Under the pieces are notes generated by a model. It did no database searches. It was not told the DNA's origin and saw nothing but the letters and a program-made list of their open reading frames with translations. Shown piece by piece: positions 2,946 through 37,231 of a stretch of 64,000 nt of DNA (positions are counted from its first letter, which is position 1; each line of letters starts with the position of its first letter). Made by a program: the position numbers and the translations under genes. Origin of the DNA: an uncultured Ruminococcus sp. (GTDB lineage Bacteria; Bacillota; Clostridia; Oscillospirales; CAG-272). The stretch lies in assembly GCA_964384555.1 (NCBI GenBank), contig CAYLLA010000002.1, forward strand, positions 1,659-65,658. The letters are read 5' to 3'.

Positions 2946-3073
2946 GTAAGCTCCGTGCGACATTTATTTTCGTTTTATCGCATTATAATATATATTCGGA
3001 CACCGTGTTGGCAATTACAAAATCGTCTGCTAAAAATAAATGTTAAATATGTGTTAATTCACGCTCTAACCCC

Positions 3074-6538: not shown

Positions 6539-6614
6539 ATCATCAGAGGCAGTGCGCAGGTGCGCACGCATGCCAAAATCAGCAAACAGCCGCAACCGCG
6601 GCGGGAGGACTAAA

Positions 6615-7571
6615 TTGTATAGGATAGGCATTGACCTTGGCGGAACCAACATCGCCGTAGGACTTGTTGATGAAAATATGAATATCGTTGAAAAGCAGAG
6701 CACACCGACTCTTGCCGAGCGCGATCCGCTTTGCATAGTTGACGATATGGCTGCGCTCTGCCGCAAGGTGGCAGAGGCTCACGGCATTTCAATTGGCGAT
6801 GTGGAGTCGGTAGGCGTAGCCTCCCCCGGTATCGCCAACGATCACAGCGGCCGTATAGAGTACGCAAACAATCTGCCGTTCAGACAGTTCCCGCTTGCAG
6901 CTCTCTTGGCGGAAAGGCTTGGGAATGTCTCGGTGCATCTTGCCAACGATGCCAATGCCGCCGCGTGGGGCGAGGCCGTTGCGGGCGCCGCAAAGGGAAC
7001 GAGCGATTCTGTTATGATCACCCTCGGCACCGGAGTCGGTGGCGGTGTTATTATCGATAACAGGATACTTACAGGCTTTAATAATGCGGGCGGCGAGCTT
7101 GGTCACATCGTTATCGCCGCGGGCGGCAGACCCTGCTCTTGCGGTCGCCGTGGTTGTTGGGAGGCCTACAGCTCCGCCACAGCCATGATAAACATGACCC
7201 GCGAAAAGCTTGAGGAGTGCCAAAAGAGCGGACGGCACACTCTTATCGAGGATATGGTGCGCGAGCGCGGTAAAATTTCCGGCCGCACGGCATGCGATGC
7301 CATGCGCGCGGGTGACGAGGCGGCGGCAGAGGTCTTTCACGAGTATCTCCACTACCTTGCCTGCGGACTTGCCAACATCATAAATATATTCCAGCCTGAG
7401 ATAATCTCGCTGGGCGGCGGCATCTCAAACGAGGGCAATTTCCTGCTTGAGCCGCTGATCCCGCTCGTGCGTGCCGAGCAGTACGGCGGCGGACTGGTCA
7501 GCGTGACCGATATACGCATCGCGCAGCTTGGCAATGATGCCGGCATCGTTGGTGCGGCAATGCTTAAATAA
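6615..7571 (+). CDS. ROK family sugar kinase (glucokinase-like)
   Basis: YRIGIDLGGTNIAVGLVD ATP-binding N-terminus and CSCGRRGCWEAY zinc motif. The start is set to the in-frame TTG at 6615, which lies 6 nt after GGGAGG; the ATG at 6570 has no SD. Confidence 0.8.
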   Translation: MYRIGIDLGGTNIAVGLVDENMNIVEKQSTPTLAERDPLCIVDDMAALCRKVAEAHGISIGDVESVGVASPGIANDHSGRIEYANNLPFRQFPLAALLAERLGNVSVHLANDANAAAWGEAVAGAAKGTSDSVMITLGTGVGGGVIIDNRILTGFNNAGGELGHIVIAAGGRPCSCGRRGCWEAYSSATAMINMTREKLEECQKSGRHTLIEDMVRERGKISGRTACDAMRAGDEAAAEVFHEYLHYLACGLANIINIFQPEIISLGGGISNEGNFLLEPLIPLVRAEQYGGGLVSVTDIRIAQLGNDAGIVGAAMLK

Positions 7572-7689: not shown

Positions 7690-9123
7690 ATGAAAAACAC
7701 AAACACAAACAAAAGCACTTATGTATTAACAAATGGAGTGATCCTTGACGGCACTCGAAATATGGAGCCACAGCGAGGCAAGGCGATATTGGTGCGCGAC
7801 GGTAAAATTGCCGAGATCATGCCGAGCGAGCGCGTGCCGAGCGGCGCGGAGAGGGTGGATCTTGGCGGCAAGTATATAATGCCGGGTCTTATCAACATGC
7901 ATGTTCACCTGGCAGGCAGCGGCAAGCCGCAAAAAAAGCAACGCGACAATGCTCGGCTGGTGGATATGATAATGAGCACTGCTCTGACTCGCTCCGTGGC
8001 CTACAAAATGGTTGGCGGCTTTGCGCTGACCGAGCTTGCAAGCGGAGTTACCACCATCCGCACGGTCGGCGGACTTGGTAGTTTTGATTCCCGCCTGCGC
8101 GATGATATTGCCGCAGGGCGCTGCCGCGGACCGCGTATTCTGGCCGCAAATGAGGGCATATCCGTCCCCGGCGGACACATGGCGGGTTCGGTCGCGGTAG
8201 CGGCACACAACAACGATGAGGCACTGGCACAGCTTGAGCGTGCACGCGCCCAGGGCGTTGACCTTGTAAAGCTGATGGTAACGGGCGGCGTTTTGGACGC
8301 CAAGGAAAAGGGGACTCCGGGCGAGTTGAAGATGCCGCGGGAGATGATACGTGCGGTGTGCGATGCGGCGCACAAAATGGGCTACAGTGTGGCGGCGCAT
8401 GTTGAATCAACGGAGGGCGTGCGCGCGGCACTTGAGGGCGGCGTTGACTCTATCGAGCACGGAGCCAAGCCGGATGCCGAGATAATCTCGCTCTTTAAAG
8501 AGCGCGGCGCGTTTTTGTGCACAACGCTCTCTCCGGCGCTTCCTTACGCGCTGTTTGACAGGTCGATCTCAAACGCCTCCGAGGTCGAGCAGTTCAACGG
8601 TAATATGGTATTTGAGGGGATAATCGATTGCGCCCGCGCGGCACTTGAAAATGATATCCCGCTGGTGCTTGGTAACGATGTTGGATGCCCCTGGATCACG
8701 CAATATGATTTTTGGCGCGAGCTTTATTACTTCCATAAATTCGTGGGAGCGGAAAACTCCTTTGCCCTTTATACCGCAACAGCACGCAGTGCCGAGCTTG
8801 CGGGTATTGGGAATATTACCGGCAGTATAGCCCCCGGGCTTGCGGCGGATATGATAGTTACTGCCGCCGACCCGCTGGCCGACCTTCGTGCGCTCCGCCA
8901 TGTTGATATGGTGATAGCACGCGGGGAGATAATGGCCGACCCCAAATTTAAGCGCCGCAAAAATGTTGAGGCGGAGCTTGATAAGTTTCTTTGTTGCTCG
9001 CATCACACAAAATATAACACGACCCGCCCCGCGCAGACCATCGCCTGCGCGGGGCGGGTTTTAGTGTTTGTATCTACGAATTTGCGGCGGCCATCTGGCG
9101 GTGCTTCATTTGGCGCCAACTGA
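7690..9123 (+). CDS. Metal-dependent amidohydrolase family protein
   Basis: PGLINMHVHL (HxH) and downstream His/Asp motifs. The Met at 7690 has GGAG 7 nt upstream. The last 34 codons read through a terminator hairpin (see findings). Confidence 0.7.
   Translation: MKNTNTNKSTYVLTNGVILDGTRNMEPQRGKAILVRDGKIAEIMPSERVPSGAERVDLGGKYIMPGLINMHVHLAGSGKPQKKQRDNARLVDMIMSTALTRSVAYKMVGGFALTELASGVTTIRTVGGLGSFDSRLRDDIAAGRCRGPRILAANEGISVPGGHMAGSVAVAAHNNDEALAQLERARAQGVDLVKLMVTGGVLDAKEKGTPGELKMPREMIRAVCDAAHKMGYSVAAHVESTEGVRAALEGGVDSIEHGAKPDAEIISLFKERGAFLCTTLSPALPYALFDRSISNASEVEQFNGNMVFEGIIDCARAALENDIPLVLGNDVGCPWITQYDFWRELYYFHKFVGAENSFALYTATARSAELAGIGNITGSIAPGLAADMIVTAADPLADLRALRHVDMVIARGEIMADPKFKRRKNVEAELDKFLCCSHHTKYNTTRPAQTIACAGRVLVFVSTNLRRPSGGASFGAN
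9022..9062. terminator. Bidirectional-looking GC-rich hairpin between convergent genes
   Basis: Perfect 15-bp stem acccgccccgcgcag / ctgcgcggggcgggt, 8-nt loop, then ttt on the plus strand. It lies 12 nt downstream of the pnuC stop on the minus strand. Confidence 0.7.
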
Positions 9124-9802
9124 TATATGCGTAGATATCGTTAAACAAAAACGCCGTAAAGCAGACAGTTACCGATATATAGGTGCTGTCCTTGACAGAT
9201 GCAAGTGACCACAGGATGATAAGTATCACATCGTTGGCCGCATAGGCGAGCGAAAACAGCTCACTGCGCCTGAATGTAAGGTACGCGGCAAGAAAGCTCG
9301 TGGTAACGGATATCGTACTCGGCAGCATATTGGCCGTGCCGAGCGCATCCAGGATAAAATAAAAGCCAAGCGTTACCGCCGCGGTAAGAGCGAACATCAG
9401 GGGGATCTCGCGGCGACCGAGGTGACCCACCTTTACCTCCGAGCGGCGACCGTTAAACGGATTTTTAAGCCATGATATAAGCGACAGGACCGCCATTGGG
9501 GCTGTCATGCCGAGGTAGGTGATCATCTCGCCGTAATAGGAAAAGCCAAGGGATATTATGCCGTAAAGCACGCTGAAAAATATCATAAAAAGCTGCCCCA
9601 GCGGGTTGCCCTTGGCGGTAAGCATCAAGGAGCTGACACCGATGAGCGAGGCGGCGAGCGTTATAAAATTGCGGCGGTCGAATATCAAAAAGGATGATAT
9701 TATCAGCAAGCAGGAGACTGAAAACAGTACCGCATCAAATCTCATGCGTGATCTTGGCGACGGTGCGTGGGCGGCGGGGGAGCTTTGTTTGCTTTTTTTC
9801 AT
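9074..9802 (-). CDS. pnuC: PnuC-family nicotinamide riboside transporter
   Basis: Seven or eight TM segments. WLKNPF, FLAAYLTFRR and FLFNDIYAYISW resemble PnuC signatures. The Met at 9802 follows AAAGGAG. Confidence 0.7.
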   Translation of the reverse strand: MKKSKQSSPAAHAPSPRSRMRFDAVLFSVSCLLIISSFLIFDRRNFITLAASLIGVSSLMLTAKGNPLGQLFMIFFSVLYGIISLGFSYYGEMITYLGMTAPMAVLSLISWLKNPFNGRRSEVKVGHLGRREIPLMFALTAAVTLGFYFILDALGTANMLPSTISVTTSFLAAYLTFRRSELFSLAYAANDVILIILWSLASVKDSTYISVTVCFTAFLFNDIYAYISWRQMKHRQMAAANS

Positions 9803-9850
9803 TTTAATTTGATCTCCTTTCGTTTTGGAGCGCCGAGGCACTCCCGGGGC

Positions 9851-9907
9851 AGAAAAAACAGCACCCGCCGCACATCTTCTATGACCTAACGATGTGCGGC
9901 GGATGCT
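9851..9907 (-). terminator. Intrinsic terminator inside the pnuC 5' leader (attenuator or riboswitch expression platform)
   Basis: On the minus strand: agcatccgccgcacatc - 14-nt loop - gatgtgcggcgggtgct (17 bp including one G-U), then gUUUUUU. It lies about 50 nt upstream of the pnuC ATG, and no upstream same-strand gene exists for it to terminate. Confidence 0.7.
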
Positions 9908-10009
9908 TATTGCATCTCTACCCGGTGGCAGATATTATTTTTCTTTTGTGGCATGGCGGCGTTCTTTGCAAAAGATATTGTAAGACCCTCGCCACTGCCG
10001 AACGGAAAG

Positions 10010-10038
10010 ATTATATCATATCCCGCCGCCGCTGTCAA
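10010..10038 (-). promoter_or_regulatory. Consensus SigA promoter of pnuC
   Basis: On the minus strand: TTGACA (10038-10033), 17-nt spacer, TATAAT (10015-10010). Confidence 0.75.
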
Positions 10039-10049
10039 CCCCGCGCGGC

Positions 10050-10078
10050 TTGAATTTTTCATCACCGGGTGATATAAT
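10050..10078 (+). promoter_or_regulatory. SigA promoter of the two-component/VTC operon
   Basis: TTGAAT (10050-10055), 17-nt spacer ending TGa, TATAAT (10073-10078). It is back-to-back with the pnuC promoter. Confidence 0.65.
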
Positions 10079-10204
10079 TTTATTGAACCGATCCTGCAGT
10101 GACCCGTGCGAGCACTTTTTTAGCTGGATTTAAGGTTCGTGGTGTATTATTTATCCTGACGATACTCGTCGGCTTTGGGATCGATCGGGTGAGGAGGAAA
10201 GACT

Positions 10205-10903
10205 ATGAAGCTTTTACTTGCCGAGGATGAGCGTGCGCTCTCCGATGCATTGGTGGTAATACTTAAGCACAACGGCTACAGCGTAGATGCCGTTTGCAAT
10301 GGTGAGGAGGCACTTGAGTATCTCGCCTGCGGAGAGTATGACGGCGTGATACTTGATATAATGATGCCGCGCGTGGACGGTATTGAGGTCCTGCGCAGGA
10401 TACGCGCGGCGGGAAATGCCGTCCCTGTTTTGATGCTTACCGCCAAGAGCGATATCGATGACAGGGTAAAGGGACTTGACTGCGGCGCGGATGATTACCT
10501 TACAAAGCCCTTTGCGACCCGCGAGCTGTTGGCGCGACTGCGTGCCATCACTCGCCGCAGTGGCGGGCGAGCCGCAAACATCCTAAAGGTTGGGGACCTT
10601 ACCCTTGATTGCTCGCAATTTGCGCTTTGCTGTGCGGGCGGCAAGCTTGCGCTGACCGCAAAGGAGTTTGGCATTATGGAGCTGCTAATGCGCTCGCCCG
10701 GGCGCGTTATCTCGGCGGAGCGGATAATGGACAGCATTTGGGGCAGTGACAGCGATGCCGAGATCAGCGTGGTGTGGACGTATCTTTCCTACCTGCGCAA
10801 AAAGCTAAAGCTTTTGGGGTCGCGTGCAAGCATCCGCGTGGTGCGAAATATCGGATATACGCTGGACTGCGGCACTGATGGCGGGGAGGCCGAAAATGTG
10901 TAG
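10205..10903 (+). CDS. OmpR-family response regulator
   Basis: Receiver domain (LLAEDE, ILDIMMP, LTAK) plus a winged-helix C-terminus; GAGGAGG RBS. Confidence 0.9.
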   Translation: MKLLLAEDERALSDALVVILKHNGYSVDAVCNGEEALEYLACGEYDGVILDIMMPRVDGIEVLRRIRAAGNAVPVLMLTAKSDIDDRVKGLDCGADDYLTKPFATRELLARLRAITRRSGGRAANILKVGDLTLDCSQFALCCAGGKLALTAKEFGIMELLMRSPGRVISAERIMDSIWGSDSDAEISVVWTYLSYLRKKLKLLGSRASIRVVRNIGYTLDCGTDGGEAENV

Positions 10904-12239
10904 GCGCAGATCGGGCGGCCGCCGCCGCGAGGCCGAGCCGCGCCAGCTCAGGCGCTTGCGCATAAAATTTATAATTGCGGCCATGTCAGCCGCCGCCATC
11001 GTGCTTGGCTCGGTAATAGGCTTTATAAACGTTCAAAACTACCTGCGCGTGGGGCGGGAGGCCGACCAAATGATAAGCTTTTTGGGGGCTAACGGCGGCA
11101 GATTCCCTGCAAAGCATACCGACGAGCCGCGGACGGAGCCACCCGAAAAGGATCACGGTATACATGAAAGCTCCGCCGGCGAGTGGCAAGGACATGACGG
11201 GGATATTCCGCGAGATATGTCCCCGGAGCTTCCCTTTGAAACAAGATTTTTTACCGTAACGCTGTCGGCGGCGGGGAATGTGACAAATATCGATACTGAT
11301 AAGATCGCCGCCGTTGATGCCGATGAGGCAGGCCGCGCGGCCGTGCTTTTGGCGGCTGACGGTCGGCGCGGCGGCTATTGGGGCGATTATCGCTGTGGCG
11401 CATACGATACCGCGGACGGCGGTGTGATGTATATCTTCCTTGATTGCGGACGCGGCCTTGAGACCTTTCGTGTTTTCCTGCTCAGCAGTATCATCATAAG
11501 CTTGTCGGGTCTTTTGGTGGTCTTTTTCCTGCTCGTTATCTTCTCGGGCATGGTCATGTGCCCGTTTGCCGAGGTCTACCAAAAGCAACGCCGCTTTGTT
11601 ACCGATGCCAACCATGAGCTAAAGACCCCGCTTACCATCATCGGCGCGGCGTGCGAGATCCTTGAGTACAGCAACGAGGAGGAGCGCGGCGAGTGGATAG
11701 CAAGGATCGGTGAGCAGGTTGGCAGGCTCTCGGAGCTGACAAACAAGCTGGTGTTCCTGTCAAAAATGGACGAGGGCGGCGGAGGCACGGTAATGACGGA
11801 TTTCTCGCTCACCGAGATAGCGTCCGAGGCGGCGCGGCAATATTCCGCTCCCGCCGCGGCGAGGGGGCTGACGCTTTGCTGTGAGATAGAGAAAAATCTT
11901 ACCTACTGCGGCGATATCGAGCTTATCCGGGAGCTGTTTTCTATCCTGCTTGACAATGCCGTAAAATACTCGCCCCCCGGCGGGCAGATAACGCTATCTG
12001 TGGCGGCAAGCGGCAAGGGGCGGCGCATTATCATAAAAAATCCCGCGGCGGAGCTTCCGCGTGGCGATCTTTCAATGCTGTTTGAGCGTTTTTACCGTCC
12101 TGATTCCTCCCGCAACAGCGCGTGCGGCGGGCATGGGATAGGCCTATCCGTGGCGCGGTCGATAGTTGAGATACATCGCGGCAGGATAACCGCCTCCTCA
12201 CCGGACGGCGAGTGGGCGATCTTTACCGTCTCGCTGTGA
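10896..12239 (+). CDS. Sensor histidine kinase
   Basis: H-box HELKTPLT, N-box LLDNAVKYS, G-box GHGIGLSVA, two TM segments. The ATG at 10896 follows GGGGAGG and overlaps the regulator stop by 8 nt. Confidence 0.9.
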   Translation: MCRRRSGGRRREAEPRQLRRLRIKFIIAAMSAAAIVLGSVIGFINVQNYLRVGREADQMISFLGANGGRFPAKHTDEPRTEPPEKDHGIHESSAGEWQGHDGDIPRDMSPELPFETRFFTVTLSAAGNVTNIDTDKIAAVDADEAGRAAVLLAADGRRGGYWGDYRCGAYDTADGGVMYIFLDCGRGLETFRVFLLSSIIISLSGLLVVFFLLVIFSGMVMCPFAEVYQKQRRFVTDANHELKTPLTIIGAACEILEYSNEEERGEWIARIGEQVGRLSELTNKLVFLSKMDEGGGGTVMTDFSLTEIASEAARQYSAPAAARGLTLCCEIEKNLTYCGDIELIRELFSILLDNAVKYSPPGGQITLSVAASGKGRRIIIKNPAAELPRGDLSMLFERFYRPDSSRNSACGGHGIGLSVARSIVEIHRGRITASSPDGEWAIFTVSL

Positions 12240-12296
12240 GCGATATGCGGCGCGACGGAGTGGGTAGACAACAAAAAACTGTGTTATAGGAGGCAA

Positions 12297-13040
12297 GTGG
12301 TGGATATTCAAAACCGCTTTGAGCGATACGAGCTTAAGTATCTCATGGACTGCGGGCAATACGATGCCGTTCGGCGGGCAATGGATGGTCGCACAGTGGG
12401 CGACGAATACGGCAGGAGCACTGTGTGCAATATATATTACGACACGCCGGATATGCTCCTCATTCGCCGCTCGCTTGAAAAGCCGATATATAAAGAAAAG
12501 CTCCGCCTGCGGAGCTACGGCGCGGCGAGGGATGACAGTCGTGTGTTCTTGGAGCTTAAAAAGAAATATAAGTCTGTTGTGTATAAACGGCGCGCGGCAA
12601 TGCGCCTTTGCGAGGCTGAGGAGTTTTTTGTCGATCCCGCGGCGGATACACAGATAAAGCGCGAGCTGGCGTATTTTATAGCAAAAATGTCGCCGCTTGC
12701 TCCCGCTATGCTCATCTCCTGTGAGAGGGAGGCCTACTTCGGCGCGGATGACAGGGATCTGCGCATAACCTTTGACCGCAATATCCTTTGGCGGGACAGC
12801 GAGGTGGATCTGCGCTTGGGCGCGGGCGGCAGGGCAGTGCTGGCGGGGGATGCGGTGCTGATGGAGGTCAAAGTCGCGGGGGCGATCCCCTTGTGGCTTT
12901 CGGGTGCGCTGGCCGATGCGCGGATATATCCCACGTCCTTTTCAAAATACGGCCGCGCATACTGCATGCGCATGGCAGAGCAACGCGGTGCGAGTGCGAG
13001 TGCGTACATGAATTTCGCGGCGCGTTCTCGGATCGGCTAA
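12297..13040 (+). CDS. VTC-domain (polyphosphate polymerase-like, triphosphate-tunnel fold) protein
   Basis: The N-terminal FERYELKYL strand and YKEKLRLRSY / LELKKKY basic strands resemble bacterial VTC/CYTH-like proteins. Family recalled from memory. Confidence 0.6.
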   Translation: MVDIQNRFERYELKYLMDCGQYDAVRRAMDGRTVGDEYGRSTVCNIYYDTPDMLLIRRSLEKPIYKEKLRLRSYGAARDDSRVFLELKKKYKSVVYKRRAAMRLCEAEEFFVDPAADTQIKRELAYFIAKMSPLAPAMLISCEREAYFGADDRDLRITFDRNILWRDSEVDLRLGAGGRAVLAGDAVLMEVKVAGAIPLWLSGALADARIYPTSFSKYGRAYCMRMAEQRGASASAYMNFAARSRIG

Positions 13041-13074
13041 AGAAAAATAAAAACAAGATCAAGGAGCATATGTA

Positions 13075-13761
13075 ATGAATAATTTATTTGACAGCATATT
13101 GATGGGAGCGGGCCAGTCTACCATTGCCGTTTCCGACTTTATTTGGTGCATTGCCGCCGCGTTGGCGGCGGGCTTGATGTACGCCGCGGCGTACTCTGTA
13201 AAAAATCGAGCGGGCAGGAGCTTTCGCACTGCGCTGATACTGCTCCCCGCGGTGGTGGCGGTAGTTATCATGATGGTAAACGGCAATATCGGCATCGGCG
13301 TTGCAACGGCGGGAGCGTTTTCGCTTGTGCGCTTCCGCTCGGCGCAGGGAAATGCCAAGGAGATAAGCCTTATATTTATGTCTATGTGCTCCGGGCTGAT
13401 AGCTGGGGTGGGGTATCTTGCATATTCCGTCCTTTTTACCGCAATAATGTGTTTGGGAGTCATCACCTGCAATCTTGTCTCTGCCGCGGGACGGCGGCGG
13501 GATCTTTCCCGCACGCTTAAGCTCACGGTACCGGAGGATCTTGACTACACAGGCGCGTTTGATGATATCTTTGCCGACTTTACTACCGCCTGTGAGCCGT
13601 GCAGTGTTAAGACCTCAAATATGGGCAGTCTTTTCAAGCTGACCTATCGTGTAGTACTTAAAAAGGAAAGATCCGAAAAGGATTTTATTGACAGCTTGCG
13701 GGTGCGCAATGGGAATCTTGAGATATCCCTTTTGAAAACGGAGGAGAACGATGAGCTGTAA
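13075..13761 (+). CDS. DUF4956-like membrane protein
   Basis: Four or five TM segments followed by a soluble C-terminal domain. It is the usual partner of bacterial VTC-domain genes (from memory). Confidence 0.55.
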   Translation: MNNLFDSILMGAGQSTIAVSDFIWCIAAALAAGLMYAAAYSVKNRAGRSFRTALILLPAVVAVVIMMVNGNIGIGVATAGAFSLVRFRSAQGNAKEISLIFMSMCSGLIAGVGYLAYSVLFTAIMCLGVITCNLVSAAGRRRDLSRTLKLTVPEDLDYTGAFDDIFADFTTACEPCSVKTSNMGSLFKLTYRVVLKKERSEKDFIDSLRVRNGNLEISLLKTEENDEL

Positions 13762-28631: not shown

Positions 28632-28930
28632 TCGGCTGTGAAATAAGGCCATACCAGCCGGGGAGTTAGCGGTGCCCTGTACCCGAGATCCGCTAAGCGG
28701 GGGTGCATTCCCCGAACGAGGGCTGATCCGACGCGGTCTGAGACGGTATTTGTGTGTTGAGGAGCGGGTCCTGCGCAATTCGGAGCTGTGAACCATGTCA
28801 GGTGGGGAACCAAGCAGCATTAAGCGGTGATCCGGATGTGCCGCGGGGATGCCTGTTCTGAGCACAGGTATCGAGTAACGCGCGGCGGTGATGTTCGACT
28901 TTGGGGTGTATGGTCTTATTTTGCAGCCGA
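28632..28930 (+). ncRNA. ffs: Signal recognition particle RNA, large Bacillus-type with Alu domain
   Basis: gccggggagttagcggtgccctgtacc (5' domain) and gaaccatgtcaggtggggaaccaagcagcattaag (domain IV) match B. subtilis scRNA as recalled. The ends pair (tcggctg...cagccga). It lies upstream of dnaX as in Bacillus. Ends are approximate. Confidence 0.85.
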
Positions 28931-37141: not shown

Positions 37142-37215
37142 TGGCTGGGATGGCCGGATTCGGACCGACGAATGCAGGAGTCAAAGTCCTGTGCCTTACC
37201 GCTTGGCGACATCCC
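37142..37215 (-). tRNA. tRNA-Gln (anticodon TTG), CCA encoded
   Basis: GGGATGTCGCCAAGCGGTAAGGCACAGGACTTTGACTCCTGCATTCGTCGGTCCGAATCCGGCCATCCCAGCCA. The 7-bp acceptor stem, anticodon loop CTTTGAC and T-loop GTCCGAATC are all present. Confidence 0.92.
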
Positions 37216-37231
37216 AATAAATGACCATATT

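Follow-up and report, generated by a model that had tools for sequence, protein, structure and literature searches.

The conserved part of the leader that precedes a pnuC-like gene (9933-9851, minus strand) is very probably a guanidine-IV riboswitch operating as a transcriptional ON switch. The element lies in a 64 kb stretch of DNA that was analysed as a whole and is referred to here as the window. Both the riboswitch class with its mechanism and its association with PnuC-like genes are already known, from work published in 2020. A first-pass annotation of the locus had described an unclassified riboswitch or attenuator built on a terminator-based platform before pnuC. A riboswitch with a terminator-based platform is upheld; the label "unclassified" does not stand, as the published guanidine-IV class already lists PnuC-like genes (PMC7736828). 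Class membership rests on a covariance model of our own (R1) and on comparison with published guanidine-IV sequences; for the window copy, the binding of guanidine, the ON direction of switching and the kissing-loop mechanism are carried over from the literature. The features of the locus are collected in Table 1.

Table 1 Features of the pnuC leader and its surroundings, in window coordinates.
Feature	Position	Strand	Details
Sigma-70-type promoter	10010..10038	-	TTGACA 10038-10033, 17-nt spacer, TG-extended TATAAT 10015-10010
58-nt hairpin insertion	9947..10004	-	Between promoter and riboswitch; window and L201 only
Guanidine-IV riboswitch (GGAM-1 / mepA motif), whole element, very probable assignment	9851..9933	-	Covariance model R1; core identity to C. 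botulinum and L. lactis RNAs
P1 hairpin UCUGCC-ACCG-GGUAGA	9917..9932	-	Loop ACCG 9926-9923 is the 5' half of the split aptamer
Linker hairpin GAUGC-AAUAA-GCAUC	9902..9916	-	3' arm 9906-9902 doubles as 5' base of the terminator stem
Intrinsic terminator	9853..9907	-	5' arm 9907-9891, loop 9890-9877, 3' arm 9876-9860, G, U6 9858-9853
Small GC-rich hairpin GGGAGUGCCUCGGCGCUCC	9827..9845	-	19-nt insertion between terminator and RBS; window and L201 only
RBS AAAGGAG (9820-9814) and PnuC-like transporter gene	9074..9820	-	ATG 9802, stop 9074, 242 aa
Bidirectional terminator	9022..9059	.	Ends pnuC and the convergent amidohydrolase gene; 17-pair stem on minus, 16-pair on plus

The downstream gene had been called pnuC on first reading, and this identification is supported by matches of its product to Pfam PF04973 (E 9e-32) and TIGR01528 (60.7 bits), as well as to the N. 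mucosa PnuC (PDB 4QTN; E 6.5e-13). The window protein keeps tryptophans that are also conserved in N. mucosa PnuC. A substrate call by comparison with the N. mucosa structure was dropped, the retained tryptophans being uninformative.

The basic layout of the leader is as the first-pass annotation described it. The perfect TTGACA-17-TATAAT promoter on the minus strand is present, matching the consensus at 12/12 positions with an upstream TG, and the same promoter is kept in syntenic relatives of the locus. Transcription is predicted to start at approximately 10003, giving the leader of about 200 nt that had been proposed; this RNA folds with an energy of -84.3 kcal/mol (z -6.9 vs shuffles). The 17-bp terminator stem followed by gUUUUUU was likewise correctly placed, with the end of the U-tract 50 nt before the ATG. 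The observation that the strand holds no upstream gene for this terminator also holds: the upstream neighbour encodes an OmpR-type response regulator (10205-10903, plus strand), and since that gene is divergent, the terminator has no upstream gene to serve. The plus-strand region 10205-13761 contains the response regulator, a histidine kinase, a 247-aa ORF (12297-13040) and a further ORF (13075-13761). The 247-aa ORF is probably a VTC-domain gene (PF09359), judging from PF09359 calls in the syntenic loci L201, L203 and L205. The gene order of this region is kept in the closest relatives and has no relation to the riboswitch.

PnuC relatives number in the thousands in Clostridia. From contigs of one genome per species, 80 orthologue loci with a PnuC identity of 57-67% were assembled, and an element of approximately 85 nt was found directly before pnuC in 79 of them, spanning diverse Clostridia, the 80th being truncated by the contig end. 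The element is common to the orthologous upstream regions (nhmmer E down to 1e-13), with the consensus aCUGCC-ACCG-GGUAGu / g-a-AUGC-loop-GCAU / UCG-uuu-ACACAUC-GUUAGGUCUUuGAA-GAUGUGU-aug-CGGAUGC-UUAUUUUUU-GGAGG, and in most orthologues the U-tract directly adjoins the GGAGG RBS. No conserved operon partner of pnuC was found across the 80 loci, the neighbours being heterogeneous with occasional NimA-like genes. Of the contigs with a Clostridia-type pnuC and the riboswitch, L007, L050 and L065 are labelled as Coriobacteriaceae, Selenomonadaceae or Prevotella MAGs; these odd labels may reflect binning errors or horizontal transfer.

An alignment of 74 orthologous leaders was used to assess covariation. 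Changes on both sides of a pair were seen for 4 of the 6 pairs of P1 (96.8% of cells paired), 15 of the 17 pairs of the terminator stem and 4 of the 5 pairs of the linker hairpin. For the three helices, 95-97% of cells are paired, as compared with 20-48% when the partners are slid by 1-3 columns, and the observed covariation values were reached by none of 500 shuffles. The first-pass annotation had proposed that orthologous pnuC leaders be compared for conserved structure; such structure is present, with all three helices covarying. The small competing hairpin (gatgc-aataa-gcatc) that it had drawn over the 5' arm of the terminator is thus real and conserved by covariation. The stems vary, but none of the 74 sequences departs from ACCG in the P1 loop or from UAGGUC, G and G in the terminator loop, an invariance that a plain terminator would not require. 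A NiaR-type DNA operator was considered and rejected, given that stems varying through compensatory changes around conserved loops are a signature of RNA.

In the window, the 14-nt terminator loop GUUAGGUCAUAGAA corresponds to the 3' half of the split aptamer; across the orthologues it is conserved as GUUAGGUC..AGAAG, with UUAGGUC..AG as its core. The ACC of the P1 loop (9926-9924) is complementary to the GGU of the terminator loop (9886-9884), and as both are invariant, covariation is uninformative for this contact in our alignment. Published alignments do report covariation for this loop-loop contact (PMC7736828; Salvail et al. 2020). A different pseudoknot, between CCG of the P1 loop and CGG of the terminator 3' arm, was rejected as the CGG is missing or replaced in L008, L046 and L010.

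Covariance model R1, comprising P1 and the terminator, was built from the 74 orthologous leaders. It gives the window element a score of 82.4 bits (E 2e-17), identifies a single copy within the 64 kb window and matches 79 of the 80 orthologue loci. Metagenome contigs were scanned with the core pattern ACCGRGYR-N20-50-TTAGGTCNNNGAAG and the matches filtered by R1, yielding approximately 100 further copies. While 56 of these precede PnuC genes, others precede genes for MATE (~440 aa), SugE/SMR (~105 aa) and Pyridox_ox_2 (NimA-like) proteins and, in one case, an EamA protein, as confirmed by Pfam. R1 scores range from 47 to 102 bits on PnuC-, MATE- and SMR-linked copies. A possible new riboswitch class had at first been considered, and was dropped after the MATE and SugE associations emerged; it is the occurrence of the core with MATE and SugE genes in metagenomes that led to its identification as guanidine-IV.

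Two groups reported the guanidine-IV class independently, Lenkeit et al. under the name GGAM-1 (2020 NAR, PMC7736828) and Salvail et al. under the name mepA motif (2020, bioRxiv 10.1101/2020.10.21.349134). Lenkeit et al. count 2,882 examples, located upstream of genes for SugE (31%), PnuC-like (25.2%) and MATE (22.6%) proteins (PMC7736828 Table S4), with NimA and GNAT also in the gene set (PMC7736828; PMC9788692). Among the loci collected here, two guanidine-IV copies occur in tandem in L019 (Blautia sp. Marseille-P3087; 3261-3346 and 3872-3957) and in L024 (Clostridium sp. AM30-24; 2368-2453 and 2979-3064), the first copy lying before a 166-aa NimA/Pyridox_ox_2-like gene and the second before pnuC. 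In L059, L063 and L073, this NimA-like gene lies after pnuC and has no switch of its own. On the metagenome contig L106, two model matches are found about 470 nt apart (1838-1919 and 2311-2395, both minus strand); the stronger precedes a NimA-like gene, and the weaker scores 48.9 bits. A metagenome contig that has a SugE-linked guanidine-IV copy (L095) also carries a Moco riboswitch at 6612-6756 (plus strand).

The window core consists of UGCCACCGGGUAG and UUAGGUC.UAG.AG, and both UGCCACCGGGUAG and UUAGGUC are common to the validated C. botulinum aptamer. In the window, the P1 core reads CUGCC-ACCG-GGUAG and the terminator loop GUUAGGUCAUAGAAG. The corresponding segments are UUGCC-ACCG-GGUAGC (UUGCCACCGGGUAGC) and UUUAGGUCUUAGUAGG in the validated C. 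botulinum riboG, and ACUCC-ACCG-GGAGU (CCACCGGG) and AGUAGGUCUGAGAAG (GUAGGUCUGAGAAG) in the validated L. lactis 95 Lla, and the supplementary alignment of guanidine-IV has rows with CUGCCACCGGGUAGG (PMC7736828). The mutations G66C, U67A and G72C in the L. lactis RNA abolish guanidine binding, and these positions are 97% conserved (PMC7736828). Their hand-counted equivalents relative to 95 Lla are G9885, U9884 and G9879, all invariant in the 74 sequences. L. lactis G62 is 90% conserved and modulation is greatly diminished in G62C; both the window and the validated C. botulinum RNA have a U there. The window element has in common with guanidine-IV the CC-ACCG-GG loop of P1, the UAGGUC...AG.AG terminator loop, the ACC/GGU complementarity, a variable linker and the gene set. 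Where it departs from the class description, the defining core remains the same: the PnuC-linked subtype usually adds a small, covarying linker hairpin in competition with the lowest 4-5 bp of the terminator stem, and only the window copy, apart from one relative described below, adds the 58-nt 5' hairpin and the 19-nt hairpin after the terminator.

Rfam 15 gave no match to the leader at gathering score, nor at E<=10 when 9750-10100 was scanned with permissive filters. The NAD+-I, NAD+-II, TPP and FMN models were among those without a match at E<=10 on 9750-10100, in agreement with the first-pass annotation, which had failed to find by eye the conserved features of TPP, FMN or NAD+-II. As the SugE- and MATE-linked copies are equally without an Rfam 15 match at gathering score, the library evidently has no guanidine-IV model and the negative for the leader reflects this gap. 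A negative Rfam scan should therefore not be equated with an unclassified leader, and similar leaders will keep being flagged. The sole Rfam matches in the window are a bacterial large SRP RNA (28649-28913, plus strand, 171.9 bits) and a tRNA (37145-37216, minus strand). The HMP-PP riboswitch (thiS motif) differs from the window element in its conserved nucleotides, ligand and gene context. It resembles the element in that its aptamer lies inside an intrinsic terminator hairpin, an analogy drawn by Salvail et al.

The window leader was aligned with three syntenic relatives. Locus L201, the relative with a PnuC 97% identical to that of the window, has the 58-nt hairpin, whereas the hairpin is absent from the syntenic L202 and L205 (PnuC identity 75-77%) and from leaders L001-L080. 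The segment folds with an energy of -20.1 kcal/mol, and within it GGCAGUGGCG (9999-9990) can pair with CGCCGCCAUGCC (9961-9950). From this comparison, the 58-nt 5' hairpin is judged to be a young lineage-specific insertion and no part of the riboswitch or aptamer: since the segment is restricted to the window and its 97% relative, the aptamer is not located there. The first-pass annotation had noted that upstream segments pair and leave a loop-rich domain. The pairing is upheld; an aptamer role for the domain is not, the domain being the recent 58-nt insertion. A repeated mobile element was considered as the origin of the insertion and dropped, as no other copy occurs within the window. The 19-nt hairpin, GC-rich like the 58-nt one, is absent from the syntenic relatives with a PnuC identity of 75-77% and has no repeat in the window. 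In these relatives, the -10 box is located approximately 17 nt from P1 and the U-tract is close to the RBS.

Guanidine-IV RNAs act as transcriptional ON switches: read-through increases with guanidine, with an EC50 of ~260 uM in vitro, and reporters are induced in vivo (PMC7736828). The Salvail preprint (bioRxiv 10.1101/2020.10.21.349134) describes a split aptamer that depends on linker length: its loops can dock only as long as the lower terminator pairs are still open and leave a sufficient stretch of linker. Single-molecule FRET has shown formation of the kissing loop and a narrow time window for the decision during transcription. Transferred to the window, this model predicts that without guanidine the 17-bp terminator would be completed at the U-tract, and transcription would stop about 50 nt before pnuC. 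With guanidinium bound, ACC would dock with GGU as a kissing loop/pseudoknot while only the upper part of the terminator stem exists, and the docked loops would keep the linker taut, so that the bottom base pairs beside the U-tract would be blocked. In the PnuC-linked subtype, the freed 5' shoulder GCAUC would also be captured by the linker hairpin. The polymerase would then read through, and the PnuC-like transporter would be made.

GCAUC is shared by the linker hairpin and the bottom of the terminator, so that only one of the two pairings can exist at a time, and both are conserved. For the window, the full terminator has a computed energy of -40.3 kcal/mol, and the combination of linker hairpin and 11-bp upper stem one of -34.9 kcal/mol. 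When the last 12-14 nt are left out, as for RNA still covered by the polymerase, the linker hairpin forms in the minimum-energy fold. With the terminator complete, the linker measures 9 nt in the window, and the median for 134 PnuC-linked copies is also 9 nt; it is 6-8 nt in MATE- and SMR-linked copies. A linker hairpin is predicted in 72% of the 134 PnuC-linked copies, against 13% with shuffled linkers, and in 0/10 SMR-linked and 3/11 MATE-linked copies. The L. lactis sugE RNA can, from its sequence, form one as well (AUCG/CGAU). In the guanidine-IV model of the Salvail preprint, the linker is called single-stranded. We infer that, through the linker hairpin, strand exchange of the classical antiterminator type may operate alongside the steric mechanism.

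Of the alternative explanations, the strongest is that the PnuC-linked copies constitute a PnuC-specific lookalike of guanidine-IV that senses another ligand, candidates being guanidino compounds or nicotinamide-related cations that the PnuC-like protein would carry. Constructs tested so far derive from sugE (L. lactis, R. timonensis) and mepA (C. botulinum, L. brevis), and the ligand identity of the PnuC-linked subtype therefore rests on identity of the core. A precedent exists in Gd4v (Lenkeit et al. 2022, PMC9788692), which is common in gut metagenomes and, like the window element, combines a P1 hairpin with an ACCG loop and a terminator hairpin as platform, the two being linked by a pseudoknot that is a predicted one in the window. 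The paper presents Gd4v as a close guanidine-IV variant that probably has a different ligand and is located for the most part before transaminase genes, in no case before SugE. Two Gd4v constructs contain an extra hairpin in the terminator loop, have GGUA in place of GGUC and have lost the G of GAAG, as in the construct 95 Csp (GUAGGUA-[hairpin]-UUACAAG). The position of the Gd4v mark D1 (a non-G where guanidine-IV always has G) was inferred from these construct sequences. The window loop, in contrast, is 14 nt long without an inserted hairpin and keeps both GGUC and the G of GAAG; with none of the construct marks in the window, identity with Gd4v itself was ruled out. The skew of the linker hairpin towards PnuC-linked copies would fit a subtype with its own ligand, but the linker lies outside the conserved binding loops. 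Furthermore, P1 and the loop cores are identical to those of validated guanidine binders, and the same core precedes SugE, an established guanidine exporter family. We therefore consider a different ligand unlikely.

Less probable still is the reading proposed in the first-pass annotation, in which an unclassified riboswitch or attenuator responds to an NAD- or vitamin-related ligand and represses pnuC. The downstream gene does belong to the PnuC family, and Rfam assigns the leader to no class. According to the same annotation, other PnuC genes are under TPP or FMN riboswitches. Others are controlled by NAD+-II (pnuC motif, Panchapakesan et al. 2021, PMC7749635), which shares with the window element its location upstream of pnuC genes. 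However, NAD+-II is found in Streptococcus only, forms a pseudoknot with the RBS, switches translation OFF and follows another consensus (PMC7749635). Against an NAD or vitamin ligand in general, the architecture, core sequence and gene set of the element match guanidine-IV, and the element also occurs before SugE, MATE and NimA-like genes, which have no NAD link. In addition, the four Rfam models for such ligands are unmatched even at the permissive threshold given above, and the apparent 5' "domain" is a recent insertion. Together these observations make an NAD- or vitamin-sensing leader very unlikely. Least credible is a ligand-independent or protein-dependent attenuator, with a constitutive terminator and a loop serving as protein-binding site: the conserved hairpin loop could in principle bind a protein, but homologues of this RNA bind guanidine themselves, and their switching in purified in vitro transcription needs no protein factor; moreover, no conserved neighbour gene for an RNA-binding protein is present across the 80 loci.

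Guanidine, and not an NAD or vitamin compound, is thus most likely the ligand of the window copy, as suggested by the sequence comparisons. PnuC proteins are otherwise known as nicotinamide riboside importers. Because the known PnuC proteins import, an ON switch would be odd here unless this subfamily exports, and the window PnuC-like protein presumably exports guanidine or a close relative. Lenkeit et al. have speculated that PnuC and MATE proteins are guanidine exporters (PMC7736828); in the literature searched, we found no paper testing guanidine movement by PnuC-like proteins. Taken as a single proposal, that the PnuC-linked linker is a covarying hairpin combining steric and strand-exchange antitermination, and that PnuC-like (SWEET-fold) proteins are guanidine exporters as opposed to vitamin importers, the picture is a tentative one, which we rate at somewhat below even chances. 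PnuC-linked copies of the riboswitch occur very frequently in Clostridia of the gut and rumen, as the 79/80 orthologue loci illustrate. The gene in the window should be annotated as a nicotinamide riboside importer with caution only, as its riboswitch points to guanidine efflux or detoxification.
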